DNA of 64,000 nucleotides from Clostridia bacterium (GCA_017428385.1 JAFRQX010000036.1:7325-71324), one strand, 5' to 3'. Positions 13,814-46,957 are shown, counted from the first letter of the stretch. Program-made: numbers and translations. Notes: generated by a model not told the origin, from the letters alone.

Positions 13814-13843
13814 AAAAAACGCCCATTCCACAGGGAACGGGCG
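13814..13843 (-). terminator. Leader (attenuator) terminator upstream of ABC exporters
   Basis: Minus strand CGCCCGTTCC-CTGT-GGAATGGGCG-TTTTTT, about 25 nt before the ABC start. Confidence 0.85.
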
Positions 13844-13868
13844 GACAGTGTCAATCAAATCCGGATAA

Positions 13869-13943
13869 TCAGACAAGGCCAGATCCGGAAAAGGACGCCC
13901 GTAATTCCTGCGCGGTTCTAAAAGTTCTGAATATGCGATTCAT
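13869..13943 (-). CDS. Leader peptide MNRIFRTFRTAQELRASFSGSGLV (24 aa)
   Basis: AGGAGG RBS 7 nt before ATG; ends 25 nt before the terminator; contains the antiterminator complement. Confidence 0.75.
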   Translation of the reverse strand: MNRIFRTFRTAQELRASFSGSGLV

Positions 13944-14137
13944 TTCCGGACCTCCTTTCTTCAATTCATTCGACTTATTCAAACATAAAAAGCAGGCTGT
14001 GTCAACGGGTTGTCAGTACATTTTACAACTCTTTTACCTATACTGACAGTATGGGTTTTCAACGAAAAACCCGGCCTGCGCGAACAGACCGGGAAAAGGA
14101 GGCTGCACAGCGGACCTGTGCAGTGAACCACAAAGGA

Positions 14138-15730
14138 TTACCGCGTGAACCGGGAGATGAACTTCCAGGCGTTCTCGCAGCTGTGATGGCGGCATTCATG
14201 GATCTGGCCGCTGACGCTGGCAAAGGCGGTGCGGATGACGCCGTCCTCACTCTCGTAATAGTGGACGGTCAGGGTGCTGCCCCGGGAAGGATCATAGATC
14301 TTTTCCACCTTGTCGCCGGGGATGCCCCAGATGGGCTGCTCCCAGGAATCCTTCTGCTCAAAGGAGATGCCGTCGAACTTCTTTTTCAGCTGATTGACTT
14401 CCGCCACATACTGTACCCGCTCCAGGGCCGTGTCGGAGTGGAAAGGCAGCTCAGGCAGGTGGGATTCCTCGCCGCCGGAATAGAAGACGGGCACGGCCAC
14501 GGTCTTGTTCAGCCGCTCGGTGGGCGGGCCGCCCCAGAAGGTCTTGTAGACGGGGAAGAGGGCACTGGCGGGCATGATGCCGGCGAAGACGTCCGGATAC
14601 TCCTGGTAGCAGTCCCAGGTCTTGCCGCTGCCCATGGAGAAGCCGGTGGCGTAGATGCGGTGCTCATCGATGGGGTAGCGCTTCTTCAGGTCCTCAATGA
14701 CTTCCACCGCTTCGGTGGCGGTAACGTTCTGGTGGTTTTCCACGGAAACGAAGAGGAAGTTGTAGCGGTGGCAGATTTCCCACCAGCCGGCGACAAAGGT
14801 CAGGTACATGGAGGAGTCGCCGCCGCCGTGGAAGCCGAGCACCAGCGGGACGGGGCCGTTGTCGAACAGGCCGTTGTTGTAATAGGCGAAGTAGCCGACC
14901 TTATGGGTCTTGGCGTCCTTGATGATCCGGTTGTCGGAAGAGGTGTTGACGGTGACGCAGCCGGCGTCTTCCGTCATGTTCAGGGCCTTGAAGTCGGGCT
15001 CCAGCTCCACGTTGCCGCACCACATCTTGAAGTGCTTGACGAAGGCGTCAAAGTCCGCTTCATAATCGGCCTTGGCCTTGACGAGCAGATGCTCACAGCC
15101 GTCGAAGGCCTTGTTGATCTCTTCGCTGTTGCCGACGCTGAGGATCGGAATATCCTTGCGCTGTACGTCCGGCATTAGGCTCAGGCGCTCCATGGAGCAC
15201 ATGGCGGGGGTGATCTCGCCGGGACCCCAGAGATATTCACCCTGCAGGGAACGGAGGAGGTGCTTTGCCACATAGTCGGCGGAGGCACCGTAGCTGTAGA
15301 TGTCCGCGCGGAAGATAGCGCCGCGGACGAAATAGCCCTTGAAGGTCTGGGTGAAGAAGTCGAAGTTCTCCACGATACCGTCTTTATAAACCTGGATCAT
15401 TTTGATCTCGGCGATTACGGCAGCATAGAAGCTTTCATCCGCGCCGGCCCAGCCGCCTTCCGCGGTGGGATAGACAAAGAGCACGCTGGAATCAACGTTC
15501 GCGGCGATGTTCGCCAGGCCGGTTTCCCGGGCGAAGTCCACGGCGCTGTCCATGCTCTGCTTTTCTTCTTCGAAAACCAGCAGCAGCGGCGCGCGGAAGC
15601 CGTAGTTATTCGTCTGTCCGTCTATTTTATTATCCGGAACATATACCTTCAGAAAGAATTGATCAAAGGTATGCTCCCAGCATTTTCCTCCGGTGATGTC
15701 CCGGACCTGAGGTCTTTCCATCATGGCCAT
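14138..15730 (-). CDS. Cytoplasmic esterase (PHB-depolymerase/LpqC-like C-terminal domain; divergent N-terminal domain)
   Basis: PLVLGFHGGG, IYATGFSMG nucleophile motif, C-terminal His (GQIHE). Confidence 0.75.
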   Translation of the reverse strand: MAMMERPQVRDITGGKCWEHTFDQFFLKVYVPDNKIDGQTNNYGFRAPLLLVFEEEKQSMDSAVDFARETGLANIAANVDSSVLFVYPTAEGGWAGADESFYAAVIAEIKMIQVYKDGIVENFDFFTQTFKGYFVRGAIFRADIYSYGASADYVAKHLLRSLQGEYLWGPGEITPAMCSMERLSLMPDVQRKDIPILSVGNSEEINKAFDGCEHLLVKAKADYEADFDAFVKHFKMWCGNVELEPDFKALNMTEDAGCVTVNTSSDNRIIKDAKTHKVGYFAYYNNGLFDNGPVPLVLGFHGGGDSSMYLTFVAGWWEICHRYNFLFVSVENHQNVTATEAVEVIEDLKKRYPIDEHRIYATGFSMGSGKTWDCYQEYPDVFAGIMPASALFPVYKTFWGGPPTERLNKTVAVPVFYSGGEESHLPELPFHSDTALERVQYVAEVNQLKKKFDGISFEQKDSWEQPIWGIPGDKVEKIYDPSRGSTLTVHYYESEDGVIRTAFASVSGQIHECRHHSCENAWKFISRFTR

Positions 15731-15907
15731 GAGTATGTCCTCCTGAGATATGTTGTTTTCAATGTCTGGATTGAAACGATGAACAATCGGTCAGGTTATA
15801 TTGTATAAGGATGGGGAATAAAGGCGCAATACGCGGAAGGAAGAAGAAGAGGACAAAAAAAGCAAAAAAATGATACCGAGGGGAAGGCTCCCCCCTCGGT
15901 ATTAATG

Positions 15908-16100
15908 AATACTGAAAACTTAAAACTTAAGACTTAAAAATGGAGGATAAAACTGCTTCAGAAAGAAGCAGTTTTCAGTGTTTTAAGGCGGTGGGGAAGT
16001 TAAGAGCGTGGAAAAAGCGGCAAGAACAGTGACAGACAGTCAGTCCCCCTTGTCACATTCTTGCCGCAGTGTTGAGTGAAGAGTGTAGAGTGTAGAGTTG
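15908..16100. repeat. Mosaic intergenic repeat
   Basis: AAAACTT heptamers, aaaactgcttc..gaagcagtttt hairpin (also at 16601, 35293), GAGTG(A/T)A heptamers. Confidence 0.8.
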
Positions 16101-16205
16101 CCCTTTGGGCAGTGCAGTGTTGCATATAAGAGTCAATTTGGAATATGATATAAATACAGATAGATGAAGTGAACATATTCTGCTGTATCGAACGGAGGGT
16201 GAGAT

Positions 16206-16514
16206 ATGGGCTGGATTTCGTGGTTGATTATCGTACTGGCTGTGGGGATCCTGGCTTGTTTCGGCGTGGGGATATTCCGGAAAAAGCAGGGTTCTGATGT
16301 GCGTGATAACGGAGAACTGACAACGGGTGTCTCCTTTGATCCGGAGAAACAGGAGCCGGTGATCCGCAGTTCGATATGCACCGGAGAAAAAGTGGCGGGG
16401 TTCAAGAGTAAGGAAGACGGCCACTTTACAGAGGTGATGGTGCTCCGGACGCCGAAGGATGAGGAAAGGTTTAAGGAGATGTATCATCTGGATTCAGTGA
16501 AAACTGAATACTGA
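16206..16514 (+). CDS. Small membrane-anchored hypothetical protein
   Basis: GGAGG RBS; N-terminal TM; conserved-looking PVIRSSICTGEKVAGF segment. Confidence 0.75.
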   Translation: MGWISWLIIVLAVGILACFGVGIFRKKQGSDVRDNGELTTGVSFDPEKQEPVIRSSICTGEKVAGFKSKEDGHFTEVMVLRTPKDEERFKEMYHLDSVKTEY

Positions 16515-16539
16515 AGATGAAAAATAATGAATACTTAAG

Positions 16540-16880
16540 ACTAGATCCTTCGACTGCGCTCCCTTCGTACCGCTTGCTCAGGATGACATCTCATAAGGAA
16601 AAAACTGCTTCAGAAAGAAGCAGTTTTTTAGTATTTAAATGATTTTTTTGCTTCGCAAAAAAGAGAGGAACGAGATTTCTCCACGCGGCAGCAAGCAGGC
16701 TTGCGCAGAAGGACAGAGTGGGCACTGTGGAGAAGTGAATGGATGTGACAAAGGGACAGACCAACTATCATCATTCCAGAAGAACGTGACAGTTGGTCTG
16801 TCCCTTTGTCACATTGCGGTGTAGTGATGAGTGTAGAGTGATGAGTGAAGAGTGAAGAGTGAAGAGTGAAAAGTGTCCTC
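16540..16880. repeat. Mosaic intergenic repeat
   Basis: Contains the GATCCTTCGAC..GCTCAGGATGAC module, aaaactgcttc hairpin, GGGACAG long hairpin and GAGTGAA heptamer run. Confidence 0.85.
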
Positions 16881-16893
16881 GTTTCTTCCGCTG

Positions 16894-17844
16894 TTAGACA
16901 GCGGTTGAAATGAGGAAACGACCAAAGCCCTCAACGGAGACGTCCGGCAGGGCGGCAGGGAGAACAGCGGTTTGCCAGGGGAGAAGGGTTTCCCGGTGAT
17001 TCTCCCAGCAGAGGGTGCAGCCTTTGGCTGTGGCGGTCAGGAACTGCATTTTGCCCGTAGGCAGGGTCATCCTCCCGTCCAGGTCATAGGCATACAGCTG
17101 GAAATGAGGATCGCTGACCAGCAGCGTACGCCGACCGCCGGGCAGATCTTCGGTTTCGCTTGCCTGGCAGGGCGGCGTACCGGAGTTGGAAACGGAGATG
17201 GCCTGATCAATGTGCAGGGGCCTCGGCTTGCCATCCTTTCCGATCCGGCCCCAGTCCCAGAGACGGTAGGTGAGATCACTGGCCTGCTGGATTTCATAGC
17301 AACGGATGCCGGAACCCAGGGCATGGACGGTTCCGGCGGGAATATAGAACACGTCTCCTGCATGGACTTCCGTCCGGCAGAGGCTGCTTTCCAGCCTGCC
17401 CTCATCCAGGACAGAACGCAGGGACTGGCCATGGGTATCAATGCCGTAAACCAGCTGCGCTCCGGGAGCGGCGTCCAGGATATACCAGGCTTCGCTTTTG
17501 CCGGGCTTGCCTTCATGGGAGAGGGCATAGCTGTCATCCGGATGAACCTGGACGGACAGGGGCTGGCGGGTATCCAGCAGCTTCAGCAGGAGCGGGAAAC
17601 CGTTTTCTTCTCGGCCAGTTAAACACTTGCCCCAGAGCGGGAAGAGATCCCGCAGGGTTTTGCCGGCATATTCCCCGTTGGCAACCCGGCTTTCATGACC
17701 GGGCAGGGCGGAAACTTCCAGGCTTTCGCCGGTGATTTCATCCGGCGAGTTTTTGCCGAAAAGCTCCTTCAGCGCGTGACCGCCCCAGGGGGTCTCCGAT
17801 CCATGCCGGAAAGAGGGTACCATAACAAGCGGATAGACGTTCAT
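16894..17844 (-). CDS. manA: Class I mannose-6-phosphate isomerase
   Basis: PWGG, GESLE, FPLLLKLLD, LSVQVHP, GKSEAWYIL, GTVHA, EIQQ Zn-binding motifs. Confidence 0.92.
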   Translation of the reverse strand: MNVYPLVMVPSFRHGSETPWGGHALKELFGKNSPDEITGESLEVSALPGHESRVANGEYAGKTLRDLFPLWGKCLTGREENGFPLLLKLLDTRQPLSVQVHPDDSYALSHEGKPGKSEAWYILDAAPGAQLVYGIDTHGQSLRSVLDEGRLESSLCRTEVHAGDVFYIPAGTVHALGSGIRCYEIQQASDLTYRLWDWGRIGKDGKPRPLHIDQAISVSNSGTPPCQASETEDLPGGRRTLLVSDPHFQLYAYDLDGRMTLPTGKMQFLTATAKGCTLCWENHRETLLPWQTAVLPAALPDVSVEGFGRFLISTAV

Positions 17845-17948
17845 TTTCCTGTTCTCCTGTGTTCATTTGGGCAAAAGCAAGGCTCAGGCAGGCTGGTTCA
17901 GCCTGACAGCGGCTTTTTGCTTATGCGGTTGTCGTGTGTTAAAAACCT

Positions 17949-19451: not shown

Positions 19452-19457
19452 GGGCCA

Positions 19458-20636
19458 TTACCTTCTTTCCTTCAGGTATTCCAGATTCCGGCGGATCAGG
19501 TCGGCCCGCTGGCGGACACAGTCCGCGCTGCGGAGCGGATCCTCCGGGGTATTGAACACATAGTCCTTGAGCCTCTCCAGATCCGTTTCCGCCACGTGCA
19601 TGCGGGTATCGGAAGAGGCATAGTAGATATAGACCCGGCCGTCATCATCCGCGATGGCGCCGTTGGTGAAGACAACGTTGCTCACATCGCCGGTGCGCTC
19701 CCGGCCGAGGGGACCGAGGAGCATGCCGGAGGGCTCCGCAATGATGCGGGAAGGATCATGGAGATCCGTTGCAAAGGCGTACAGCACATACCGTAGTCCG
19801 GCAGCGGTGTTCCGCACGCCGTGGGCGATGTGGATCCAGCCGCGGTCCGTCTTGATGGGCACGGCACCGGCACCGTTCTTGGACTCGGTCAGGGTGTGGT
19901 ACTTCCGGCGGGAAATGATCTTCTCCTCGCCGACGACCGGATGGGTGATATCCCCGCAAAGACCGAAACCGATGCCCCCGCCGGAGCCGGTCTCGATGAA
20001 GTCGTCCATGGGACGGGTATAGAAGGCATACTTGCCATCCACGAACTCCGGATGGAGTACCACGTTCCGCTGCTGGGGAGAATTCAGGGTAATCAGGTTC
20101 GGCAGGCGCTCCCAGGTTTCCAGGTCCTTTGTCCGGACGATGCCCGCCGCGGCAACGGCGGCGGAAAGATCGGCACTGCGGGTATCCTTGCTCTCGGAGC
20201 AGAAGACGCCGTAGATCCAGCCGTCCTCATGGGCAGTCAGGCGCATGTCATAGACGTTGGTTTCCTGCTTTTCCGTATCCGGCAGGATGACCGGATAATC
20301 CCGGAAACGGAAGCCTTCGGTAGGCTTGTCGCTTTCCGCCACGGCGAAGAAGCTTTTCCGGTCCATGCCTTCCACGCGAACCACCAGGCAATACTTTCCG
20401 TTCAGCTTGATGGCGCCGCTGTTCAGGGTGGCATTGACGCCCAGGCGCTGCATCATAAAGGGATTGGTGTCCGGATTCGCGTCATACATCCAGAAGGGAG
20501 GAATATGATCCCGGGTGAGGACAGGGTTGGCGTAGCGGGAAAAAAGGCCGTTGTAGAAGCGGGAATCAACGGGGTTGGGGAGGGAGATGAGTTGCTCATA
20601 GGATTCCATGAGGGAGGCAAAAGTGCGAGTGTTCAT
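19458..20636 (-). CDS. mgp: 4-O-beta-D-mannosyl-D-glucose phosphorylase (GH130_1)
   Basis: [63 protein letters not shown]. Confidence 0.93.
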
Positions 20637-20654
20637 AAAAACATCCTTACGTTT

Positions 20655-28124: not shown

Positions 28125-28154
28125 TTGACACTGTCTGTTGTCCCGTAGTATAGT
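28125..28154 (+). promoter_or_regulatory. Sigma-A-like promoter of the esterase/GNAT operon leader
   Basis: TTGACA-18-TATAGT. Confidence 0.6.
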
Positions 28155-28187
28155 CAATCCAATCTGAAAGAAAGGAATGCTCTACTG

Positions 28188-28307
28188 ATGCAGCGTAACG
28201 GATCCAAATACAGTGAATCTATTATGATCTCCGCGAATGGCATGATGCAGATTCGCATTATTTCCGTATACGGTCATACAGTCAGAGAAGAGCAGTCCGG
28301 CATATAA
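28188..28307 (+). CDS. Leader peptide MQRNGSKYSESIMISANGMMQIRIISVYGHTVREEQSGI (39 aa; true start could be a downstream Met)
   Basis: AAAGGA 11 nt upstream; stop 14 nt before terminator; 3' codons complementary to terminator 5' arm and loop. Confidence 0.55.
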   Translation: MQRNGSKYSESIMISANGMMQIRIISVYGHTVREEQSGI

Positions 28308-28321
28308 ACCAGGATTTATCC

Positions 28322-28355
28322 AGCCGCTTATCTCTGACAGATAAGCGGCTTTTTT
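28322..28355 (+). terminator. Leader (attenuator) terminator
   Basis: 12-bp perfect stem agccgcttatct/agataagcggct plus T-run, 39 nt before the esterase start. Confidence 0.88.
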
Positions 28356-28393: not shown

Positions 28394-29311
28394 ATGATAA
28401 ACAGTCTGAAAAGATGCTGTGCCGTTCTGGCAGCGGTTCTGCTGGCAACAGCGGCGCCGGCTTTTGCGGAAGAAAAGACTGTGCGGACAGAAAGCTGGAG
28501 AATGGAAAACCGCAATGAGGTTTTTGCCTGGATTCCGGAGGGGCTTCCGGCAGAACCGGTTCCCATGGTGCTGGCGATGAACTGTACAAACGGCAATCCG
28601 CAGGCGGAAGTGAAAACCAACGGCTGGGACGTGCTGTGCGCGGAGGAGGGCTTCATTGTCATTGCGCCGGAATACAGGGACAGTGCATCCTATGAAGAAA
28701 CAGATTATCTCCGCATGGTGATTGAACAGGCGGTCAGCCGGTATCCGGTGGATCCGTCCAGGGTTTACGCCACGGGCTTTTCCAATGGCGGAGCGGCGGC
28801 GATTGCGCTGGCTTCGGAATATCCGGAACTGATCGCCGGGATTTCAGCGGCCGGGTGGCTGGTGGAAGTGAAAAACACGGAGGGGCTGCTGACGCCCTTC
28901 CAGGTGCTGAAGGGAACGGAAGAATTCACCGTCCGGAACGGGCAGGGCGATATGGAACTGATGGAAGATGAAAAGAACGCCCTGCGGACCCTGTTTGAAA
29001 TGAACCGAATGCCTTCGGGCGAAACAGATTATCACGCGGTGCCTTACTGGGGGTACAGGCCGGACCGGCAGGAAAGTATCTGGCCGGAATACAAGGACTA
29101 TCATTATTACGGCGGAAGCGGTATTCCGCAGAGCAACGTGGAGTGGCAGATCAGCGATTACTGCCTGGAAGGCTATGAAGCGCCTTTTGCCCAGCTGGTA
29201 CTGATTGAAGGCGCGGATCATACGCCGCATGATTATCATGCCAGGATTGCGTGGGATTTCTTCTCCCGCTTCAGCCGGAACACAGACGGAACGATAACTG
29301 AAAGGAAATAA
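28394..29311 (+). CDS. Secreted PHB-depolymerase/LpqC-family esterase
   Basis: Signal peptide; VYATGFSNGG nucleophile; GADHTPH. Confidence 0.85.
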   Translation: MINSLKRCCAVLAAVLLATAAPAFAEEKTVRTESWRMENRNEVFAWIPEGLPAEPVPMVLAMNCTNGNPQAEVKTNGWDVLCAEEGFIVIAPEYRDSASYEETDYLRMVIEQAVSRYPVDPSRVYATGFSNGGAAAIALASEYPELIAGISAAGWLVEVKNTEGLLTPFQVLKGTEEFTVRNGQGDMELMEDEKNALRTLFEMNRMPSGETDYHAVPYWGYRPDRQESIWPEYKDYHYYGGSGIPQSNVEWQISDYCLEGYEAPFAQLVLIEGADHTPHDYHARIAWDFFSRFSRNTDGTITERK

Positions 29312-29317
29312 AGAATA

Positions 29318-30790
29318 ATGATTATCAGAAAATTTACAGAGCAGGATGCGCAGGCCGTGTCCGAACTGATTATTACCACGATCCGGATTTCCAATACGAA
29401 GGATTATCCGGTGGAGCTGATGGAAGAACTGGTGAAGACGGAAACACCGGAGCATGTGCTGCAGCGGGCCTCCTGGACGCACTTCTATGTGGCGGAGGAA
29501 GCCGGGAAGATTATCGGCTGCGGCGCGATCGGCCCTTACTGGGGCAAAGAAGATGAAAGCAGCCTGTTCACGATCTTTGTGCACCCGGAATGGCAGGGCA
29601 AGGGAATCGGCCGGGCCATCGTGGAAACCCTGGAAAAGGATGAGTACGGCATACGGGCAAACCGGATCGAGATTCCGGCCTCCATTACCGGGCTGCCGTT
29701 CTACCGGAAGCTGGGATACGGCTTCAAGGACGGAAAGGATACCGTTGACGAGGAACACCTTTACCGGCTGGAAAAGCAGATTGAGGCTCCGGTCATCCGT
29801 CAGGTGGAGGATGCGGAGGAAAAATCCCGCATTTGCCGGGAGATCCTGGAAGCCCTGCCGGAGTGGTTTGAGGTTCCGGAATCCCGGGAACAGTATATCC
29901 GGGAATGCAGGAAATGGTTCTTTGCAGCGGCGGAACGGAATGGCAGGGCGGTGGGCTTCCTGTGCCTGAAGGAAACGGGAAAGGCTACCGTTGAACTGGC
30001 AGTGACCGGCGTACTGAAGGCGCTTCACCGCCGGGGAACCGGCCGGGCGCTGTTTGAAGCGGCAAAGGCATACGCGGTTGCCGCAGGATATGAATTCATG
30101 CAGGTCAAGACGGTGGCGGAGGGCCTCTATGAAGACTATGACCGGACCAACCGGTTCTACCAGGGGCTGGGCTTCCGGGAACTGGAAGTGATTCCGCAGG
30201 TATGGGATGAGGACAACCCCTGCCAGATCTATGTGATGTCCCTGAGGAAATCCCCGTGGGAGCAGATCATGACCCGCCGGAGCTACCGGGGCAAATACAA
30301 ACCGGACAGGATTCCGCGGGAAGACCTGAAGACGATCCTGGAGGCGGGGCTGGCGGCACCCTCCGGCTGCAACAAACAGACCACCAGCCTGGTGGCGGTG
30401 GACGATCCGGAGATCCTGAAGCAGATCAACGCGGTGATTGATCCGCCGGTCTGCGAGACGGCACCGGCCATGATCTGCGTCCTGTCCCAGCGGATTAACG
30501 CGTTCCGGGACCGGTGCTTTGCGACGCAGGACTATTCCGCGGCCATTGAAAACATGCTGCTGACGATTTCCTCCATTGGATACGGGAGCTGCTGGTTTGA
30601 AGGACATATTACAGATGAGGACCGGATCTGCGACCGGATCGCGGAAATCCTGAATGTGCCGGAGGGATACGACCTGGTCTGCATCCTGCCGGTCGGAAAA
30701 ATGGAAAGCGAACCGACTGTACCGAAGAAAAAGCCCTTTGCCGAACGGGCCTGGTTCAACGGATTCGGCAAAACGGAAGAAACGGAGTAA
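29318..30790 (+). CDS. Three-domain fusion GNAT-GNAT-nitroreductase
   Basis: Two acetyl-CoA motifs (VHPEWQGKGIG; LHRRGTGRAL), then TRRSYRGKY...AAPSGCNKQ nitroreductase. Confidence 0.9.
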   Translation: MIIRKFTEQDAQAVSELIITTIRISNTKDYPVELMEELVKTETPEHVLQRASWTHFYVAEEAGKIIGCGAIGPYWGKEDESSLFTIFVHPEWQGKGIGRAIVETLEKDEYGIRANRIEIPASITGLPFYRKLGYGFKDGKDTVDEEHLYRLEKQIEAPVIRQVEDAEEKSRICREILEALPEWFEVPESREQYIRECRKWFFAAAERNGRAVGFLCLKETGKATVELAVTGVLKALHRRGTGRALFEAAKAYAVAAGYEFMQVKTVAEGLYEDYDRTNRFYQGLGFRELEVIPQVWDEDNPCQIYVMSLRKSPWEQIMTRRSYRGKYKPDRIPREDLKTILEAGLAAPSGCNKQTTSLVAVDDPEILKQINAVIDPPVCETAPAMICVLSQRINAFRDRCFATQDYSAAIENMLLTISSIGYGSCWFEGHITDEDRICDRIAEILNVPEGYDLVCILPVGKMESEPTVPKKKPFAERAWFNGFGKTEETE

Positions 30791-30798
30791 TAAAGCCA

Positions 30799-31614
30799 AT
30801 GGATGCTTTTGTGAATGAGAAGGATTTCGAACTGCTGGCGAGAGATCGGTGTACCTTCCAGGTACTGGACAGGATCCTGAGGCAAGAATGTGAGCTGATC
30901 CGGACAGATCATGAACGCCTGATCCTGTGCCATTCCGCATCGCGCTATCCGGTCTGGATCTGGACGCCGGACGGCCTGACGGAGGCGGAGAAGGAAGCAG
31001 CCTGGAAACTGGCATCTGAGTTCCACCTGGTGGAAGAGGGCTTCGAGATCATCATGAAATACGAGCTGGCGGAATACTTCATGGCCCGCGCGGAAAAGGA
31101 GGGCATGAAGATGGGCTGCCAGATGGAGATGATGGCCTATGATTGCCCGGAACCCAAGGCGCCGGAATTTCCGGCGGACGGGGAACTGTACGAATGCACG
31201 CCGGAAGATACGGACGAGGTTGTGAAATTCCTGAGCGGATTCTTTATGGATTTAGACGGGGAACTGCCGCCGGATGAACGTATCCTGGCCAAAGCACAGG
31301 AATACATCGGCAACCAGGCGTTTTTCCAGTGGAAGACGGCGGAGGGCACGCCGGTTGCCTGCTGCTATTACAGGCCGAACCAGGATATGGCCTCCATCGG
31401 CGGCGTATGGACCGTACCGGAATACCGCAGGAAGCATTACGCGCAGCACATGGTGTATGCCGTGACAAAAAAGATCGCCGGCATGGGGTATCTGCCCATG
31501 CTGTATACGGACGCCAATTACGCGGCGTCCAATGCCTGCTATCAGAAGATCGGCTACACCCTGCGGGGCAGGCTGTGCACGATTAAACGCATGGAAGAAA
31601 AAAAGATGATATAA
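30799..31614 (+). CDS. GNAT acetyltransferase (C-terminal FR47-like domain)
   Basis: VWTVPEYRRKHYA; NAASNACYQKIGY-type motif B. Confidence 0.88.
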   Translation: MDAFVNEKDFELLARDRCTFQVLDRILRQECELIRTDHERLILCHSASRYPVWIWTPDGLTEAEKEAAWKLASEFHLVEEGFEIIMKYELAEYFMARAEKEGMKMGCQMEMMAYDCPEPKAPEFPADGELYECTPEDTDEVVKFLSGFFMDLDGELPPDERILAKAQEYIGNQAFFQWKTAEGTPVACCYYRPNQDMASIGGVWTVPEYRRKHYAQHMVYAVTKKIAGMGYLPMLYTDANYAASNACYQKIGYTLRGRLCTIKRMEEKKMI

Positions 31615-31630
31615 TCACGGAGGCAAAAAG

Positions 31631-32101
31631 ATGTTTTATGATACAGAGGATCTGCAGGACGGTGCAATCCGGCTGCAGCTGGAAAGAACCGCAGAGGGGT
31701 ATCCGGAGAAAGGCTGGGTGCCGGCTTACTACTTCGGAATCTGCCTTCCGGACGGAACGCGGATCGGGCAGTGCGACCTGCGGATCGGCCACAATGACCG
31801 GCTCTACATCGGCGGGAACATCGGCTATGGGATCGATGAAGCCTACCGGGGACACCATTACGCGGCAAAAGCCTGCGGGCTGCTGTTCCGGCAGGCCCGG
31901 AAGCATGATCTGGGGTATGTGATTATTACCTGCGATCCGACCAACACCGCTTCCTCGAGAACCTGCGAGCTGGCGGGCGGAGAGTATCTGGAAACGGCGG
32001 ATATTCCGGAAGACCACGATATGTATGAAAGGGGACTGCACCAGGTTATGGTTTACCGCTTTGACCTGGACTGCGGGGAAAACGAAGATGGAACGAACTG
32101 A
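31631..32101 (+). CDS. GNAT acetyltransferase
   Basis: GNIGYGIDEAYRGHHYA; NTASSRTCELAGG. Confidence 0.88.
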   Translation: MFYDTEDLQDGAIRLQLERTAEGYPEKGWVPAYYFGICLPDGTRIGQCDLRIGHNDRLYIGGNIGYGIDEAYRGHHYAAKACGLLFRQARKHDLGYVIITCDPTNTASSRTCELAGGEYLETADIPEDHDMYERGLHQVMVYRFDLDCGENEDGTN

Positions 32102-32537
32102 ACGGGTGATCCTGACCAACCTGTGTATGATCCAGGACGGCACAAAGGTGCTGGTACAGGAAAAGGTGGGCAAGGATGCCGGCGGGATTATTTTCCCCGG
32201 CGGCCATGTGGAGGAACATGAACCCATCGTGGACTCGGTGATCCGGGAAATGAAGGAAGAAACCGGACTGACGATTGAAAAGCCGCAGTTATGCGGCATC
32301 AAGGAATGGGTCAACGAGGACGGTACCCGGTACGTTGTCTTCCTGTTCAAGACCGACCGCTTTTCCGGGAAACTGACCTCCTCTGACGAAGGACGGGTGT
32401 TCTGGCTGGAGAAGGACGATGTGCTGAAGAGCAACTGGATCTGGCAGATGGACTGCCTGCTGAAGATCATGGCGGACGGGGAATATACGGAACTGTTTTT
32501 TGACCCGGCGGATGACTGGAAGCCGGTTCTCAAATAA
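32088..32537 (+). CDS. Nudix hydrolase (8-oxo-dGTP diphosphatase-like)
   Basis: PGGHVEEHEPIVDSVIREMKEETGL Nudix box; ATG 32088. Confidence 0.92.
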   Translation: MERTERVILTNLCMIQDGTKVLVQEKVGKDAGGIIFPGGHVEEHEPIVDSVIREMKEETGLTIEKPQLCGIKEWVNEDGTRYVVFLFKTDRFSGKLTSSDEGRVFWLEKDDVLKSNWIWQMDCLLKIMADGEYTELFFDPADDWKPVLK

Positions 32538-32554
32538 TACCGGAGGAAACAGAA

Positions 32555-33007
32555 ATGAGCATTTCCTACAGAAAACTGACAGAAAACGACCTGGAGACCT
32601 TCATCCGGATGCGGATTACGCAGCTCCGGGAGGAAGGCGCAACGGAGGACGTGGACCTGGTGCCGCCGCTGATGGATTACTATCACCGGCACCTGGCGGA
32701 CGGAACCTATGTGTCCTGGCTGGCACTGGACGGGGAGAAGATCGTCGGCACCAGCGGAATGTCCTTTGTGGAAAAGCCGCCGTACTTCAGCTGTCCCTCC
32801 GGGCGGATCGGCCTTTTGTCCAGCATGTACACCGATCCTGAATACCGGCGTATGGGCATCGCGAAGGAGCTGCTCCGGCGGGTAACGGAAGAAGCCCGGG
32901 CATACGGCTGCGGATGCGTGCAGATTACCGCCTCCGACATGGGCGTGCTGCTGTACACGGACTTCGGATTTAAGAAAAACGGAAACTTTATGCAATATAA
33001 CCTGTAA
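32555..33007 (+). CDS. GNAT acetyltransferase
   Basis: MYTDPEYRRMGIA; GVLLYTDFGF. Confidence 0.9.
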   Translation: MSISYRKLTENDLETFIRMRITQLREEGATEDVDLVPPLMDYYHRHLADGTYVSWLALDGEKIVGTSGMSFVEKPPYFSCPSGRIGLLSSMYTDPEYRRMGIAKELLRRVTEEARAYGCGCVQITASDMGVLLYTDFGFKKNGNFMQYNL

Positions 33008-33020
33008 GGAGGACCAGGAC

Positions 33021-33782
33021 ATGATCACCGAGTCTTTTGATAACCTTTCCCAGGCAATCATCAATCCGGTACGGAAGGAGAACGCCCCGGCGGTGGACGC
33101 CTGCATCGTGACGTTCTCCCATGAGATAGAGAAATATGTGGCGGAGAACTACGCCTCCGGGGAGATCACTTCCCTCTGGTGCGCCACAGGAAGGACGCCG
33201 GTTTACCTGATCGAGAAAAACGGCAAGCGGTTTGCCTTCTACAAAACCTATGTGGGCGCGCCGATCACCGTCGGCCTGATGGAGGACGCCGCGGCGGAGA
33301 TGGCCTGCGACAGGTTCATCCTCTTCGGCGGGGCAGGCTGCCTGAACAAGGAAATCGCCCACGGCAAGGTGATGGTCCCCACCGCTGCCTACCGGGATGA
33401 GGGTACGTCCTATCACTACGCCCCGGCGGCGGACTACGTGACCGTGGGAAAATCTGATACGGTGGCGGAATTCATGAAAACGAACGGTATTCCTTATGTG
33501 CTGGGGAAAACCTGGACTACGGATTCCTTTTACCGGGAGACGCGGAACAACTTTGAGAAGCGGAAGGCGGACGGCTGCATCTCCGTGGAGATGGAGTGCG
33601 CCGGCGCACAGGCGATGTGCGACTTCCGGGGACTGGAACTGTATCCCTTCTTCACAAGCGGCGACCTGCTGGACGCGCCGGAATGGGACGACCGGGGCAA
33701 GGATTACAAGGACGGCGGCCAGCATGACGTGGGCCACTTCAGCATCGCCCTGGCCCTGGCGGACTATATTTCACAAAAATAA
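33021..33782 (+). CDS. Nucleoside phosphorylase (PNP/UDP family)
   Basis: VGAP, FGGAG, RDEGTSYHY, WTTDSFYRET, VEMECA motifs. Confidence 0.9.
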   Translation: MITESFDNLSQAIINPVRKENAPAVDACIVTFSHEIEKYVAENYASGEITSLWCATGRTPVYLIEKNGKRFAFYKTYVGAPITVGLMEDAAAEMACDRFILFGGAGCLNKEIAHGKVMVPTAAYRDEGTSYHYAPAADYVTVGKSDTVAEFMKTNGIPYVLGKTWTTDSFYRETRNNFEKRKADGCISVEMECAGAQAMCDFRGLELYPFFTSGDLLDAPEWDDRGKDYKDGGQHDVGHFSIALALADYISQK

Positions 33783-33793
33783 TTTCCGCAGGG

Positions 33794-33822
33794 TGTAACA
33801 TTTACCGCTTTTCATTCGTAAT
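33794..33822 (+). promoter_or_regulatory. ECF-type promoter
   Basis: TGTAAC-N17-CGTAAT upstream of sigma gene. Confidence 0.6.
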
Positions 33823-33839
33823 ATCAGTGAAGAAGGCAG

Positions 33840-34379
33840 GTGGAAGGGATGACCGGGGAGCAGGAACTGGTAAGACTGCTGAAGACCGGCAGCGCGGACG
33901 CGTTTGAACAGATGATCACACGCTGTCGTGCCGGAGCAGAAGCCTATGCCTGCAGCCTCCTCCATGATTCCCAGGCCGCCGAAGACGCCGTACAGGAAGC
34001 TTTCTCCAGACTCTATGCCGTCCGGACAGACATCGATGAAAACCGTTCCTTCTCCGCTTATCTGTACACGATCGTAAAACGAATCTGTATAGACGAGCTG
34101 CGGAAAAAGAAACGGTTCCCGGATCTTCCGGGAGAGCTGCCCGATCCGCCGGTTCCCTCGGCGGAAGCGGAATACATCAGCCACTGGGACCGGCTGAACC
34201 GGATCCACATGCTGGCTGAACTGGATGAGACGGACAGGAGACTGCTGACAGCTTTCTCACTGGAAGGGAAGACCACGAAAGAGATCGCCGGGGAAATGAA
34301 CATGACCGACGGTCAGGTGCGGGTCCGGCTGCACAGGATCCGCAGAAGAATCAGGAAAGGAATGAAAGACGATGCGTGA
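33840..34379 (+). CDS. ECF RNA polymerase sigma factor
   Basis: AEDAVQEAF, FSAYLYTIVKR, region 4 TKEIA...VRVRLHRIR. Confidence 0.92.
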   Translation: MEGMTGEQELVRLLKTGSADAFEQMITRCRAGAEAYACSLLHDSQAAEDAVQEAFSRLYAVRTDIDENRSFSAYLYTIVKRICIDELRKKKRFPDLPGELPDPPVPSAEAEYISHWDRLNRIHMLAELDETDRRLLTAFSLEGKTTKEIAGEMNMTDGQVRVRLHRIRRRIRKGMKDDA

Positions 34380-39069: not shown

Positions 39070-39070
39070 G

Positions 39071-41471: not shown

Positions 41472-41477
41472 AATACC

Positions 41478-41514
41478 GGGGCGCCGCCGGACAATAGGGC
41501 GTCGCCCCTTTTTT
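41478..41514 (+). terminator. Intrinsic terminator
   Basis: ggggcgccgcc/ggcgtcgcccc stem plus TTTTTT. Confidence 0.7.
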
Positions 41515-41525
41515 GAGGAAACAAG

Positions 41526-42773: not shown

Positions 42774-42783
42774 TCCCAGTCGG

Positions 42784-42809
42784 AAAAACTGCCGAAAGGC
42801 AGTTTTTTT
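42784..42809 (+). terminator. Intrinsic terminator
   Basis: aaaaactgcc-gaaa-ggcagttttt. Confidence 0.85.
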
Positions 42810-42819
42810 CTTTTATCTC

Positions 42820-42866
42820 TTGACGGAATGAAAGAAACATTTTATTATATCGAACGAACGTTCGAT
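42820..42866 (+). promoter_or_regulatory. Promoter with TetR-type palindromic operator
   Basis: TTGACG-17-TATTAT followed by ATCGAACG-AA-CGTTCGAT. Confidence 0.8.
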
Positions 42867-42891
42867 TTAGTTTTAAATACAGGAGGATACT

Positions 42892-43467
42892 ATGCCGAGA
42901 GAAAACAGAAAGGAACTGATTATCCGGGAAACGCTGAAGCTGTTTTCCGAAAAGGGATTCGCGGCCGTCTCCATGCGGGATCTGGCGGAATCCGTCGGCA
43001 TCAGTGTAAGCACGATCTACCATTATTACCCGAGCAAACAAGACCTGGCCCAGGATATGATTGCCCGGGCGAACGAACTGACCGCGAAAGCCCGTGACTC
43101 CTTTTTCCGAATCCTGAGCGGCACGGAGAAGGTGGAATGCGAGCCTTTTGTGCGCGCGGGAGTCATGTATGTGACAGCCTATCTGCGGCATGAGCAGATC
43201 GATCCCCTGCTGCGGATGCTGGAGAGCGAGCGGTTTCATGAGCCTGCCGCGGAGGAAGCCTGGCAGAGGATGATGTTCACCGATCCGATCGCGCACGAGG
43301 CAAAGGTATTTGAACTGCTGGCCGCCCGGGGGGAAATCAAGGAAACAGACGCGGACCGGCTGGCCGGGGAGTATCACGGGATTGTTATGCTGGGCTATTT
43401 TACCGGGGATACGGACAGGATGGCCCGGGAACTGACGGCGTTTTACAACAGAGTATTTAACAGATAA
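42892..43467 (+). CDS. TetR/AcrR family regulator
   Basis: LFSEKGFAAVSMRDLAESVGISVSTIYHYYPSKQDL HTH. Confidence 0.93.
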   Translation: MPRENRKELIIRETLKLFSEKGFAAVSMRDLAESVGISVSTIYHYYPSKQDLAQDMIARANELTAKARDSFFRILSGTEKVECEPFVRAGVMYVTAYLRHEQIDPLLRMLESERFHEPAAEEAWQRMMFTDPIAHEAKVFELLAARGEIKETDADRLAGEYHGIVMLGYFTGDTDRMARELTAFYNRVFNR

Positions 43468-43479
43468 GGGAGACAGGAC

Positions 43480-44367
43480 ATGAAGAAGTACAGAAGTGAA
43501 AAGAGCGGACAGGCCATCCTGGAGACCTATGACCGGATCCTGTCCACCTGGCAGTGTGAGACAAAGGAAAGGGACGTGGAGACAGAATACGGAACCACCC
43601 ATGTGATCGAATGCGGGGCGGAGGAAGGTCCGGCGCTGGTACTTTTCCACGGAGTGGGGGACGACTCGGCGCTGATGTGGATCTACAACGCGCCGGAACT
43701 GGGAAAGCATTTCCACCTTTACGCCATCGACACGATGGGCGGCCCGGGGAAGAGTGTGCCCAACGAGAACTACAACAAGGAATTTGACGACGTGCGCTGG
43801 ATCGACGGGGTGCTGGATGCGCTGGGCATCGGGAAGGCCTTCTTCGCGGGCGTATCTATGGGCGGATACCTGGTGCAGATTTATACGCTGATGCACCCGG
43901 AACGGGTGATGAAAACCATCAGCATCTCCGGCACGGTACCGGTGGGCGGAAAGAAGAACTCCATGTCGGCAATGATGAAGATCTTCCTGCCGGAGGCGCT
44001 GTTCCCGACGGATAAAAACGTGACAAAACTGCTCAAGAAACTGAGCGGGGAGAACTATGCGGTCTTTACGGAAAACAAGGAGATCATGGCCCATTACAAA
44101 AGCCTGCTGAAGGGCTTCAACAACATGGCCATGGGCTACCACAGGCTCCACGCGTTCACCCCGGAAGAGGTGAACCGGATCCGGGACAAGGTGACCTACC
44201 TGGTGGGAACGGAGGATCCGTTTGAGAAAATTGGCGGACGGGAAGTCCTGGAGCAGAATCACATGGACGCGGTATTCTATGAAAAAGCCGGACATGGGCT
44301 GAACCATGAGCGAGCGGAGGAGATCAACCGGAAGATGATCAGTGTTCTCCAGGGAGCGGCGGAATAA
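43480..44367 (+). CDS. Alpha/beta hydrolase (carboxylesterase-like)
   Basis: LVLFHG, AGVSMGG, GTEDP, AGHGLNHE catalytic triad. Confidence 0.92.
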   Translation: MKKYRSEKSGQAILETYDRILSTWQCETKERDVETEYGTTHVIECGAEEGPALVLFHGVGDDSALMWIYNAPELGKHFHLYAIDTMGGPGKSVPNENYNKEFDDVRWIDGVLDALGIGKAFFAGVSMGGYLVQIYTLMHPERVMKTISISGTVPVGGKKNSMSAMMKIFLPEALFPTDKNVTKLLKKLSGENYAVFTENKEIMAHYKSLLKGFNNMAMGYHRLHAFTPEEVNRIRDKVTYLVGTEDPFEKIGGREVLEQNHMDAVFYEKAGHGLNHERAEEINRKMISVLQGAAE

Positions 44368-44817
44368 CCAGTTCAGCTTTATCTATCAGCGGCACAATCC
44401 TATATCACCTGTAGGAGCGAAAACGGAAGTCGATTGTGATAAGCCGGCAATAAGCATCATGGAACCGGGAGTGTCATGACAGACCATTGGTATGATTTGT
44501 GCATGTACGATTAATACCGTTGGTAACTTCATTAAAGACGGGATTTTTATATAATTGAATTGTTTCAATCATGCAGCGACACATTATGGGCAGCCATACC
44601 AAGTGATATTCCAGAAAGCGGAGTAAGCAGCATATACTTTGGATATAACGCCGCCACAGGATACAGCATTACCAATCTGGGGAGAATTACGAGCGAATGT
44701 ATTTCTACAGCATATTTTATCCCGCCGGTGAATCCGGCTATGAAGAAAACACAGGGAATCTTGAACGTAAACGGCATTATGACCGTGTGCACCGGAGAAA
44801 GATAAAGAGGGAATTAT

Positions 44818-45471
44818 ATGAACAAAAAACGCCTGAACCGGGACAAATGGGGGTTCCAGTATTACCCGTATTACCAGATGAGGATTGACCATGAACTGTT
44901 TCACGGAATGGTCTGCCTGATCCGGTTTACGGACGGGGAAAAGAATTACTGGGAAACGCCGAAAGCCGGCAGGATCCAGGTGACCGGTGAAGGGATGACC
45001 TGGCTGGAGTTGATTCCGGATGATACCCGCCGGGTGATCACCGCCATGTATTTTCCGGACGGAACCCATGGACCGGAACGGGAAAGCTATCCGGTGACCG
45101 CAAATGAACAATACCAGCCGTCCATCTGGTATATTGATATCATTGAGGGCACCGAGTATGATGAAGACGGCGTTGCAGCGTTTATCGACAAATATCTTGA
45201 CGTGATCATAACGCCGGAAGGCGACGTGAAGGTAGACGACCGGGATGAACTGGACGCGGCGTACGCTTCCGGAGAACTGACCAAAGAGCAGTACGACGCG
45301 GCCCTGGCGGAGGGCGAAGACATCCTGAAGGCATACGGCGACGATATCCGCGAGCTGGACGCGTGGTGCGCGGCAGTCCGGCAGCTGGCGGAGGACCGGA
45401 TCGCGGCGAGGGAGCCCATTACCATGTGCCGGGAAGTCCGGGAGTGGAGAAAAACACAGGGAGAATCCTGA
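44818..45471 (+). CDS. DUF402-domain protein
   Basis: WYIDII, FIDKYLDVIITPEG, VDDRDELDAAY pattern. Confidence 0.75.
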   Translation: MNKKRLNRDKWGFQYYPYYQMRIDHELFHGMVCLIRFTDGEKNYWETPKAGRIQVTGEGMTWLELIPDDTRRVITAMYFPDGTHGPERESYPVTANEQYQPSIWYIDIIEGTEYDEDGVAAFIDKYLDVIITPEGDVKVDDRDELDAAYASGELTKEQYDAALAEGEDILKAYGDDIRELDAWCAAVRQLAEDRIAAREPITMCREVREWRKTQGES

Positions 45472-45494
45472 TACGGAAAGGCTGGAGAACCGTT

Positions 45495-46730
45495 ATGAAT
45501 CAGACAGAGAAGGCACTGGCTCTCGCGAAAAGCGATAGGCTGAACTGCATCGCGGAACTGGATGAAACCGCACTGGAACAGGCAAAAGCACAGGAAGCGG
45601 GCAAACAGGACAAGCCGCTGGCCGGGATACCGGTGCTGGTGAAAGACAATATTGACGTGAAGGGCCTGCATACCACGGCAGGCAGCCTGGCACTGGCGGA
45701 CAATATTGCCCGGGAGGACGCACCGGTGATCCGGAACCTGCGCAGGAACGGCGCGGTGATCCTGGGAAAAACCAATATGACGGAGTTTGCCAATTATACA
45801 ACCGATGGTATGCCGGGTGGATACAGTTCCCGCGGCGGGCAGGTGATTCACGCGGTGAATCCGAAGCTTTCACCCACCGGTTCTTCCTCCGGATCGGCGG
45901 TGGCGGTTGCAGCGGGAATTGTACCGATGGCTGTGGGAACAGATACCTCCCACTCCGTGACCGGCTGCGCGATGTTCAACGGGATCTGCGGGCTGAAACC
46001 GCCAGCGGGCACACTGTCGGCGGAAGGGATCATTCCCATTGCCAGGACGCTGGACAGCGCAGGGGCGATGGCGCGGAACCTGACCGACGCACTGAAACTG
46101 TATTCCGCCATGCGGGACGAACCGCTGCCGGAACTGAAGCCCCTCAGGATGGACAAGCTTCGCATTGCGGTGAACCGGGCAAACAGGGAGCATCTTCAGT
46201 GCCAGGAACAGTTCCTGAACAGCCTGCTGAGGAAGCTGAAAACAGGCGGGGCCGTGATCGGAGAAGTGGATCAGGGAGCGGCGCCTGAAATGGTGACGAT
46301 CATGCAGTGGGAATTCGGGCCGATGCTGGAAGACTATCTGGCAAAATCCACGGCGGAACGGAAAACCCTGGCGGAGATTGTCGCGTACTATGAAGCCAAT
46401 CCGGATACCATGATGAAGTACGGGGACAAATTGCTGCGGGCAGCGCTGGATGAAACGCCCGGCGGACTCGAGGGGAAACCCTATCTGGACGCCCTGGAAG
46501 CACGTAAAGAAGCTATTTCAAAGGTTACGGCGGAGATCGGGGATTATGACGCTGTCCTGATGACGGGACCGACAAGCATTATGCATTACTGCGGTCTGCC
46601 GACGGTTACGGTGGCGGGAGAAAAGAAGAATCCCGACGGTGTGAATGAGGCAGTGATCCTGTACGGAAAGGATGAGTACAGGCTGTATGAAGCCGCCCTG
46701 GCGATTGAACAGGTGATGCTGAAGATATAG
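45495..46730 (+). CDS. Amidase signature family protein
   Basis: GIPVLVKDNI (Lys), GSSSGSAVAVAA, GTDTSHS; ATG 45495 after GGAG. Confidence 0.9.
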   Translation: MNQTEKALALAKSDRLNCIAELDETALEQAKAQEAGKQDKPLAGIPVLVKDNIDVKGLHTTAGSLALADNIAREDAPVIRNLRRNGAVILGKTNMTEFANYTTDGMPGGYSSRGGQVIHAVNPKLSPTGSSSGSAVAVAAGIVPMAVGTDTSHSVTGCAMFNGICGLKPPAGTLSAEGIIPIARTLDSAGAMARNLTDALKLYSAMRDEPLPELKPLRMDKLRIAVNRANREHLQCQEQFLNSLLRKLKTGGAVIGEVDQGAAPEMVTIMQWEFGPMLEDYLAKSTAERKTLAEIVAYYEANPDTMMKYGDKLLRAALDETPGGLEGKPYLDALEARKEAISKVTAEIGDYDAVLMTGPTSIMHYCGLPTVTVAGEKKNPDGVNEAVILYGKDEYRLYEAALAIEQVMLKI

Positions 46731-46776
46731 GGCATCCGGGAGCCCCCCCGGGCTTTTGAAAACGGCAATTTCCGGG

Positions 46777-46805
46777 TTGACAAGGGACAGGACTTCTGGT
46801 GTAAT
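46777..46805 (+). promoter_or_regulatory. Sigma-A promoter of GNAT leader
   Basis: TTGACA-17-TGTAAT with extended TGn. Confidence 0.7.
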
Positions 46806-46836
46806 AAGATTAATCTTTGAAAGGCAGGTGAGTGAC

Positions 46837-46893
46837 ATGGTTTACCAGGCATACCGGATTGAGAACTTCTGTCATTCACCCAAAGCCGCCTGA
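46837..46893 (+). CDS. Leader peptide MVYQAYRIENFCHSPKAA (18 aa)
   Basis: GCAGGTG RBS; lies between promoter and terminator; codons 7-12 complementary to terminator 5' arm. Confidence 0.7.
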   Translation: MVYQAYRIENFCHSPKAA

Positions 46894-46928
46894 AGCAGTC
46901 AGCGGCCATTGGTCAATACGGAAAGTAC

Positions 46929-46957
46929 AGTGTTCTCGATTTCGGGAACACTTTTTT
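46929..46957 (+). terminator. Leader (attenuator) terminator
   Basis: agtgttctcga-tt-tcgggaacact plus TTTTT, 28 nt before the GNAT start. Confidence 0.8.

Follow-up and report, generated by a model that had tools for sequence, protein, structure and literature searches.

Predicted ribosome-dependent attenuators in three sequence-unrelated leaders of a Clostridia genome fragment, one of them belonging to a large GNAT-linked family

In a 64,000-nucleotide (nt) stretch of a Clostridia bacterium genome (GCA_017428385.1, JAFRQX010000036.1:7325-71324), which we refer to as the window, three 5' leaders stand before a pair of ABC half-transporter genes (leader L1), an operon encoding a hydrolase and several GNAT acetyltransferases (L2) and a single GNAT gene (L3). 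Each of them is probably a ribosome-dependent transcription attenuator composed of four segments, in which a short upstream open reading frame (uORF) holds an alternative partner for one arm of an intrinsic terminator. The elements are all there and show conservation, and both statistics and covariation back the alternative helices; we infer that translation of the uORF, and the position of the ribosome on it, would decide between the structures. The most valuable result concerns L3, which belongs to a large and apparently undescribed family of leaders in metagenomes. In the literature, we found no description of a GNAT-linked uORF leader.

An earlier note on this DNA had placed three such leaders here, and at those positions each indeed runs from a promoter through a short uORF and a strong intrinsic terminator to the first gene (Table 1). 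The terminators, with stems of 10-12 bp and T-runs in all three leaders, end 27-38 nt before the genes, the gap between T-tract and start codon being 31 nt in L1, 38 nt in L2 and 27 nt in L3. No promoter-like site was seen between terminator and downstream gene in L1, L2 or L3, and the genes they gate would therefore be expressible by readthrough only. The ribosome-binding site that the note had assigned to each leader is clear in L1 (GGAGG) and L3 (AGGTGA), with only a poor version, AAAGGAA, in L2. Scanning window positions 1-60000 for strong terminators gave about 12, including these three; no other 5' leader with a strong terminator lies in this range, the remainder being at gene 3' ends or inside coding sequence. 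A hairpin at 9867 was considered as a fourth leader and rejected, as the gene call on orthologous contig L006 most likely puts it inside a convergent coding gene.

The three leaders share this layout without sharing sequence, as had been claimed. A covariance model of L3 gave 116 bits for L3 itself, 14 for L1 and 8 for L2; the latter two are at noise level, which speaks against descent of the three from a single element by divergence, and this reading was rejected. When the whole window was searched against Rfam 15, the gathering score was reached by a tRNA only and no leader matched a cis-regulatory family; at relaxed thresholds, each leader returned terminator-like noise only. Contigs related to the window come from ruminant gut, other gut and digester metagenomes, and the nearest genomes are Acetatifactor and Lachnospiraceae metagenome-assembled genomes.

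What the leaders have in common, beyond their layout, is a set of mutually exclusive pairings. In each leader, the best partner of the terminator 5' arm lies within the uORF. We compared the duplex energy of this pairing with that of 2000 dinucleotide-preserving shuffles of each uORF: the L1 segment CGCAGGAATTACGGGCGT pairs with the terminator 5' arm at -20.4 kcal/mol (shuffle mean -12.7; p = 0.005), the L2 segment GTCAGAGAAGAGC at -20.9 kcal/mol (shuffle mean -12.5; p = 0.0025) and the L3 segment GGATTGAGAAC at -14.6 kcal/mol (shuffle mean -7.8; p = 0.0055). The complementarity noticed earlier therefore stands out from chance in every case (p = 0.0025-0.0055). In all three leaders, the uORF's own ribosome-binding site also forms one arm of a helix, P1, whose other arm is, or abuts, the antiterminator segment. 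Namely, GGAGGUCCG pairs with CGGGCGUCCUU in L1, the stretch from Shine-Dalgarno (SD) sequence to AUG pairs with ...CAGUCAGAG...GAGCAGUCC in L2, and GGUGAGUGACA pairs with UGUCAUUCACC in L3. P1, antiterminator and terminator make up the classical 1:2 / 2:3 / 3:4 arrangement, seen also in trp, ermK, bmrB and cplR, so that the same four-segment design, with the uORF ribosome-binding site as the anti-antiterminator arm, is found in three sequence-unrelated leaders of one genome fragment. Compared with shuffles, fold stability was high in L2 (z = -5.0) and L3 (z = -4.0).

Read as an attenuator, each leader would work as follows. Segment 1 would be the SD and start region of the uORF; segment 2, inside the uORF, could pair either with segment 1, giving P1, or with segment 3; and segments 3 and 4 would be the two arms of the terminator. 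With no ribosome on segment 1, P1 would form first, segment 3 would pair with segment 4 and transcription would stop before the gene. A moving ribosome that covers segment 2 would lead to the same outcome, termination. A ribosome held at the start or on the first few codons would instead occupy segment 1 and leave segment 2 free to capture the emerging terminator 5' arm, so that RNA polymerase would continue into the genes behind the leader (the ABC exporter pair of L1, the hydrolase/GNAT operon of L2, the GNAT gene of L3). Ribosomes trapped early in the uORF by an inhibitor of translation, for instance a peptidyl-transferase-centre antibiotic, may be the natural trigger, a guess of which we are a little less than half persuaded.

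Folding of truncated transcripts is consistent with this order of events. If the transcript is cut short ahead of the terminator 3' arm, its minimum-energy fold joins the 5' arm to the uORF segment, and a modelled ribosome placed over codons 1-4 leaves this pairing in place. The pairing disappears once the modelled ribosome sits on codons 5-21 of L1, codons 29-40 of L2 (stop included) or codons 5-14 of L3.

The strongest evidence comes from the relatives of L3. When GNAT-homologue loci were retrieved through their proteins (91%, 58% and 57% identity; down to 53-58%), the leader was present at every one, with SD, ATG and uORF. Metagenome contigs contain at least 120 exact copies of its 21-nt 5' motif, GAAAGGCAGGTGARTGAYATG; among the 120 matches listed, 92 are followed by a uORF of 18-30 codons, and most of these 92 loci then have a T-run at about 111-150 nt and, after it, an open reading frame (ORF). 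Other motif matches are chance hits, for instance at a csrA start. At one locus (L136:10463-10579), the motif and a short local hairpin lie where an ordinary ORF of about 80 codons (MDHSKTGKF...) begins, with no terminator after them, which may reflect chance or exaptation as a ribosome-binding site. All 10 downstream proteins scanned from diverse loci were GNATs, of one, two or three domains, and most of the multi-domain ones have a W[YFH][YIL]GDL domain in common, in shuffled architectures. Family members scored about 100-137 bits with covariance model R1, a few atypical or truncated ones lower, and among the loci gathered the model found no further members beyond those carrying the anchor motif, its weak hits being a gene 3' end and the start of a real ORF. 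The L3 promoter is identical in contig L024, and a similar promoter occurs at 54 of 95 family loci.

Covariation was assessed on 24 diverse leaders of the family, with 500 shuffles and slid controls. P1 and the terminator together were 96% paired with 14 doubly changed cells, and neither the 500 shuffles nor the slid controls did as well; taken singly, P1 was 93% paired, with C-G to U-A covariation, and the terminator 99% paired, with 5 pairs altered on both sides. The antiterminator helix, which competes with both, was 96.4% paired compared with 24-69% in slid controls, showed 13 doubly changed cells and was likewise matched by 0 of 500 shuffles. In variant members, the uORF segment tracks the terminator: in L148 the segment, TGAAAACAT, is identical to the leader's own terminator 3' arm, and in L036 the segment CAGAAAAC accompanies terminator arms GTTTCTG/CAGGAAC. 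Across 65 unique leaders, the antiterminator segment keeps to nucleotides 17-35 of the uORF, and 15-37 nt separate the stop codon from the terminator. The frame in which the conserved hairpin arm is read differs in some members, giving ISFT in place of YHSH, and the apparent L3 peptide motif is therefore an RNA constraint.

A further feature of the family is its position relative to tRNA genes. In 15 of 94 loci (L047, L063, L067, L084, L095, L025, L029 and others), the 3' end of a tRNA gene lies exactly 5-8 nt ahead of the leader motif. These tRNAs are mostly Leu-UAG, with Trp-CCA and Thr-CGU also found, and the leader would there belong to a transcript that runs on past the tRNA 3' end. Where no tRNA adjoins, the promoter puts the 5' end at about the same spot.

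L1 is conserved over a narrower range. Contigs L006 (81% identity) and L010 (76%) retain the promoter, the box upstream of it, SD, uORF, P1 helix (SD with antiterminator segment), P2 hairpin and terminator, with TTGACA and TT(G/A)AAT kept in both promoters. The upstream box TTGTAAAATGTACTGACAAC is a candidate operator or UP-like element that may add control of transcription initiation. Across the window, L006 and L010, the uORF has 24, 24 and 25 codons and the same stop position, and the encoded peptides are almost wholly different (MNRIFRTFRTAQELRASFSGSGLV, MFTANERYPFPGSRAVLSGSVCFR and MTPMTTVVIAVPNGRLAFSGPASAR), sharing an SG dipeptide alone, which is encoded by an RNA hairpin. The antiterminator occupies uORF nucleotides 28-49 in all three lineages and changes together with the terminator arm (ACGGGCG/CGCCCGT, CGAGCGG/CCGCTCG and GAATGGCCGGC/GCCGCTCATTC); the cognate pairs are the most stable in 2 of the 3. 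The terminator itself has compensatory changes in L006, L007 and L010.

In all, of the four lineages with at least 76% identity, three have the L1 layout, and the fourth, that of L007 and L008 (77%), has lost the uORF and retained the terminator. In L007, a promoter-like TTGACA..TTGAAT stands directly before the retained terminator (L007:2120-2509), and the second ABC gene is called as two pieces of 252 and 385 aa (L007:4360-6235), possibly through decay or assembly error. The leader is absent from transporter relatives at 56-68% identity, and an ABC-protein scan of genome contigs gave only 3 relatives (56-61% identity), all without it. One RNA contig matches the flanks of L1, that is, the SD/start region and the terminator, and has 66 different letters in place of the 66-nt uORF interior (13853-13918); with its equal length and diverged interior it looks like a strain variant.

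For L2, the promoter, which is invariant in orthologues, the 39-40-codon ORF and the terminator are all found again in loci of 87%, 83% and 77% identity, and a 66% relative has a different operon without the leader. The frame, start and stop of the ORF are retained in four lineages and every indel is 3 nt long, and substitutions fall evenly over codon positions (8/7/10, 11/7/13 and 8/7/8). Searched against 1.84 billion representative proteins, the 39-aa peptide matched itself alone; by comparison of these sequences, it is the reading frame that is maintained and not the amino-acid sequence. The middle of the ORF is variable, and folds into an equivalent long hairpin from different sequence in the window, L012 and L016, the arms GUGAAUCU/AGAUUCGC of the window being the counterpart of ACGGUAUUUCU/AGAAAUGUCCGU in L016. 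The antiterminator pairing forms in truncated-transcript folds of the window, L016 and L020, not of L012, and its segment is invariant save for an A-to-G change in L020 that is compatible with a G-U pair. The terminator is nearly invariant in orthologues, with a compensatory U-A to C-G change in L159.

The L2 terminator also has a distribution of its own. As a 35-nt sequence (28320-28354; L159:1-33), it appears in at least four upstream and three downstream contexts in metatranscriptome contigs, each of the downstream ones with SD and ATG, and it occurs once in the window. It may be a repeated module common to several leaders in these communities. Assembled contigs tend to break exactly at this terminator, and the breaks look like assembly artefacts. 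The pattern was absent from the viral contigs searched.

Conservation of uORFs and pairings in orthologous leaders, on which the earlier note had staked its reading beforehand, thus extends to at least 76% identity in L1 (3 of 4 lineages), at least 77% in L2 and 53-58% in L3, and the leaders match the layout of ribosome-coupled transcription attenuation with elements that are conserved and covarying. The note's unrecognised "sensor peptides" fared differently: L1 keeps only SG, L2 changes evenly over codon positions and the L3 family switches frame, and because the peptide sequences are not conserved the term is unsupported.

Several observations weigh against ribosome-dependent attenuation. 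At equilibrium, the full-length RNA always adopts the terminator in spite of modelled ribosome footprints, and any switch must therefore be co-transcriptional or kinetic, as in known attenuators; equilibrium footprint folding of the full-length RNA was rejected as the switch, since the antiterminator appears in truncated co-transcriptional folds only. In the same models, a ribosome at the stop codon leaves the antiterminator unmasked in L1 and L3, which makes the sign of the response to normal translation ambiguous, and efficient translation of the L1 or L3 uORF might itself favour readthrough. Translation of the uORFs is deduced, their start sites are themselves buried in P1, and the SD of L2 is both weak and 10 nt from its AUG. 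Most L3-family sequences were found by a pattern that contains ATG, and conservation of the ATG is unbiased in three lineages only. An RNA contig (46804-47360) covers L3 and its GNAT gene, which is compatible with co-transcription and does not prove it; the RNA data are low-depth assembled contigs with possible DNA content and no 3'-end information.

The best-surviving alternative, which we consider unlikely, is that the terminators are conditional but are run by an RNA-binding antiterminator protein, a small ligand or uncharged tRNA, the short ORFs being incidental. The unconserved peptides, the reading of the conserved L3 hairpin arm in two frames, the conservation of both L3 P1 arms in sequence beyond pairing, the strong structure of the L2 leader (z = -5) and the start of 15 of 94 L3-family leaders 5-8 nt past a tRNA gene all sit well with it. 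Yet an SD and an AUG make up exactly the conserved 5' arm of L3, with A-rich codons after it, all three leaders conserve the length of the uORF and the place of its stop, and the indels of the L2 ORF are all 3 nt. Moreover, the loops have no conserved unpaired positions such as a ligand pocket needs, and no Rfam family matches.

Somewhat less probable again is a ribosome-dependent leader that senses not antibiotics but the supply of an amino acid or charged tRNA, or a metabolite through nascent-chain arrest, in the manner of trp, tnaC and speFL. The downstream genes look metabolic (GNATs, NUDIX, phosphorylase, hydrolase) with none at a resistance-family threshold, some family members are physically linked to a tRNA gene, and many L3-family uORFs have His and Cys codons at codons 12-17. 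These His, Ser and Cys codons, however, are the complement of the SD arm and are gone in frame-shifted members, a ribosome stalled at them would cover the antiterminator, and no conserved single-codon run exists in any of the three leaders. A biosynthesis leader of the trp/his/leu/thr type was rejected, there being no conserved codon run and no biosynthetic genes downstream. Very improbable, finally, is a reading in which the hairpins terminate constitutively with some leakage, or close small genes of their own (such as a 39-aa gene in L2), and complement the uORFs by accident: the terminator is always the most stable full-length fold and gene callers annotate a 39-40-aa ORF, but there is no promoter between the terminators and the downstream genes, the complementarity is significant in all three leaders and covaries, and the 39-aa product has neither a sign of amino-acid-level selection nor relatives in 1.84 billion representative proteins.

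Table 1 Positions of the leader elements and gated genes in the window
Feature	Coordinates	Strand	Description
L1 conserved box	14009..14028	-	TTGTAAAATGTACTGACAAC; directly upstream of -35; conserved in window, L006 and L010
L1 promoter	13977..14005	-	-35 TTGACA 14005-14000, 17-nt spacer, -10 TTGAAT 13982-13977; read from sequence
L1 SD	13955-13951	-	GGAGG; ATG 7 nt on
L1 uORF	13869..13943	-	24 codons + stop, MNRIFRTFRTAQELRASFSGSGLV; SD GGAGG in front
L1 antiterminator segment	13895..13912	-	CGCAGGAATTACGGGCGT; within uORF; partner is SD region (P1) or terminator 5' arm
L1 P2 hairpin	13860..13889	-	TCCGGAT ... ATCCGGA; surrounds uORF stop codon; conserved in RNAalifold consensus
L1 terminator	13814..13843	-	10-bp stem 13843-13820, CTGT loop, T6 to 13814
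L1-gated genes	10142..13782	-	two overlapping ABC half-transporter genes (620 and 593 aa); first ATG at 13782
L2 promoter	28125..28154	+	TTGACA at 28125, 18-nt spacer, TATAGT 28149-28154; 11 of 12 consensus matches
L2 weak SD	28171-28177	+	AAAGGAA; 10 nt before ATG
L2 uORF	28188..28307	+	39 codons + stop; spans long imperfect hairpin P1, which buries the start codon too
L2 antiterminator segment	28281..28293	+	GTCAGAGAAGAGC; pairs with 28326-28338 (terminator 5' arm and loop)
L2 terminator	28322..28355	+	12-bp stem 28322-28350, CTGAC loop, T-run to 28355
L2-gated operon	28394..33782	+	first ATG at 28394; end at ~33782
L3 promoter	46777..46805	+	TTGACA at 46777, 17-nt spacer, -10 TGTAAT 46800-46805; read from sequence
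L3 SD	46826-46831	+	AGGTGA; ATG 5 nt on
L3 uORF	46837..46893	+	18 codons + stop, MVYQAYRIENFCHSPKAA; SD AGGTGA in front
L3 P1 helix (anti-antiterminator)	46827..46880	+	5' arm GGTGAGTGACA (SD to A of AUG) with 3' arm TGTCATTCACC (codons 12-15)
L3 antiterminator segment	46856..46866	+	GGATTGAGAAC; mimics terminator 3' arm; pairs with 46932-46942
L3 terminator	46929..46958	+	10-bp stem 46929-46952, T6
L3-gated gene	46986..47975	+	two-domain GNAT acetyltransferase, 316 aa; own terminator hairpin (GC-rich, with T-run) at 47951-47975

The genes behind the leaders are only partly recognisable. Both L1-gated proteins have ABC_tran in their C-terminal halves, that is, one C-terminal nucleotide-binding domain (NBD) each behind about 340 aa of N-terminal sequence, and at full length they align with MsbA-type models far below threshold. 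Their N-terminal halves, which would hold the transmembrane domains (TMDs), matched neither Pfam ABC_membrane nor PDB chains, and by these comparisons the transporters seem to represent a family of divergent exporters. The gene upstream of L1 (14138-15730, minus strand) and the first gene after L2 (28394-29311, plus strand) both carry signatures of esterases of the polyhydroxybutyrate (PHB)-depolymerase type.

Two acetyltransferase units had been proposed downstream of L2 and L3. That of L3 consists of the GNAT alone, as its own terminator implies, and that of L2 is an operon reaching beyond the three genes originally named. Its order is a secreted alpha/beta-hydrolase (signal peptide; PHB-depolymerase-like), a GNAT-GNAT-nitroreductase fusion, GNAT, GNAT, NUDIX, GNAT and a PNP_UDP phosphorylase, and is the same in L012 and L016. 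Its far part, within 31631-34379, comprises a GNAT (156 aa), the NUDIX gene, a GNAT (150 aa) and the phosphorylase, followed by a gene for a sigma factor of the extracytoplasmic function (ECF) type. Opposite to these genes, a 507-aa ORF (31583-33106) without any family hit seems spurious.

None of the genes in the three units reached a curated resistance-family threshold; the best NCBIfam acetyltransferase hits were AAC(3)-I, with 24 bits against a cut-off of 200, and AAC(6'), with 23 bits against 140. The nearest PDB match of the GNAT is itself an uncharacterised GNAT, and the AlphaFold model of the L3 GNAT is poor, with a predicted local distance difference test (pLDDT) score of 59. A drug-related role for the downstream genes, part of the earlier proposal, is therefore not supported by these comparisons, nor is a common inducer or "network", for which the shared design is the sole ground.

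Inducible resistance in Firmicutes has often first been spotted through such leaders, and a conserved attenuator thus points to genes that matter when translation is disturbed. We tentatively propose, as a possibility rather than an expectation, that L3-type leaders make up a class of ribosome-sensing attenuators, widespread in the Clostridia of gut and rumen and so far undescribed, which serves a single clade of GNATs with one, two or three domains and is sometimes transcribed as a tRNA 3' extension, and that these GNATs and the L2 operon are unrecognised translation-stress-induced enzymes. If so, the GNATs and the enzymes of the L2 operon could modify ribosome-targeting drugs or a component of translation. 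The L3 family supplies at least 90 independent examples, all before GNATs of undefined substrate in gut and rumen bacteria, and makes a concrete question testable: what these GNATs act on, and which signal switches them on.

Among known systems, L1 most recalls bmrB-bmrCD of Bacillus subtilis, in which lincomycin, erythromycin and chloramphenicol induce ribosome-dependent readthrough of a terminator in the leader ORF (PMC4191407). In both, a leader ORF goes with predicted structures for termination, antitermination and anti-antitermination, and two ABC half-transporter genes lie side by side downstream (PMC4191407). The terminator of bmrB lies inside its 162-nt leader ORF, whereas that of L1 lies 23 nt past the stop of a 24-codon uORF; the likeness is one of layout, not of compared leader sequences. 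The L1 pair has the architecture of a heterodimeric exporter, with TMDs that found no counterpart in Pfam or the PDB, and may or may not be orthologous to BmrCD.

The earlier note had assigned the leaders to the vmlR/lmo0919 type, an assignment that does not hold. Leaders of vmlR, lmo0919/vgaL and cplR share with ours an intrinsic terminator that alternates with an antiterminator, together with a 5' hairpin in which the uORF is sequestered in the repressed state (PMC10201436); in cplR of C. difficile, this hairpin sequesters a 3-codon uORF and mutation of the start codon abolishes induction (PMC10201436). However, uORFs in leaders of antibiotic-resistance (ARE) ABCF genes have 3-4 codons (MIN, MRI, MK[L/Q] and MAGN; PMC10201436), compared with 24, 39 and 18 in L1, L2 and L3, and the antiterminator segment lies inside the uORF in our leaders, unlike those of vmlR, lmo0919 and cplR. 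The cplR terminator also hides the SD of the main gene, which is not seen in L1, L2 or L3. The regulated genes differ as well, ARE-ABCF leaders controlling soluble ABCF proteins with two NBDs and no TMD, whereas L1 precedes TMD-bearing membrane ABC exporters and L2 and L3 precede a hydrolase and GNATs.

More broadly, ermK, tet(M), mef/msr, vmlR and lmo0919 are established leader attenuators (reviewed in PMC5418344), and in ermK, tet(M), mef/msr and E. coli trp the position of the ribosome on the leader ORF selects antiterminator or terminator (PMC5418344), as we propose here. Unlike these, L1, L2 and L3 have no conserved arrest motif or run of regulatory codons, and their segment 1 is the uORF's own ribosome-binding site in place of a coding stretch. 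The class of mechanism is established, and L1, L2 and L3 would work in the same way but stand outside the known families.

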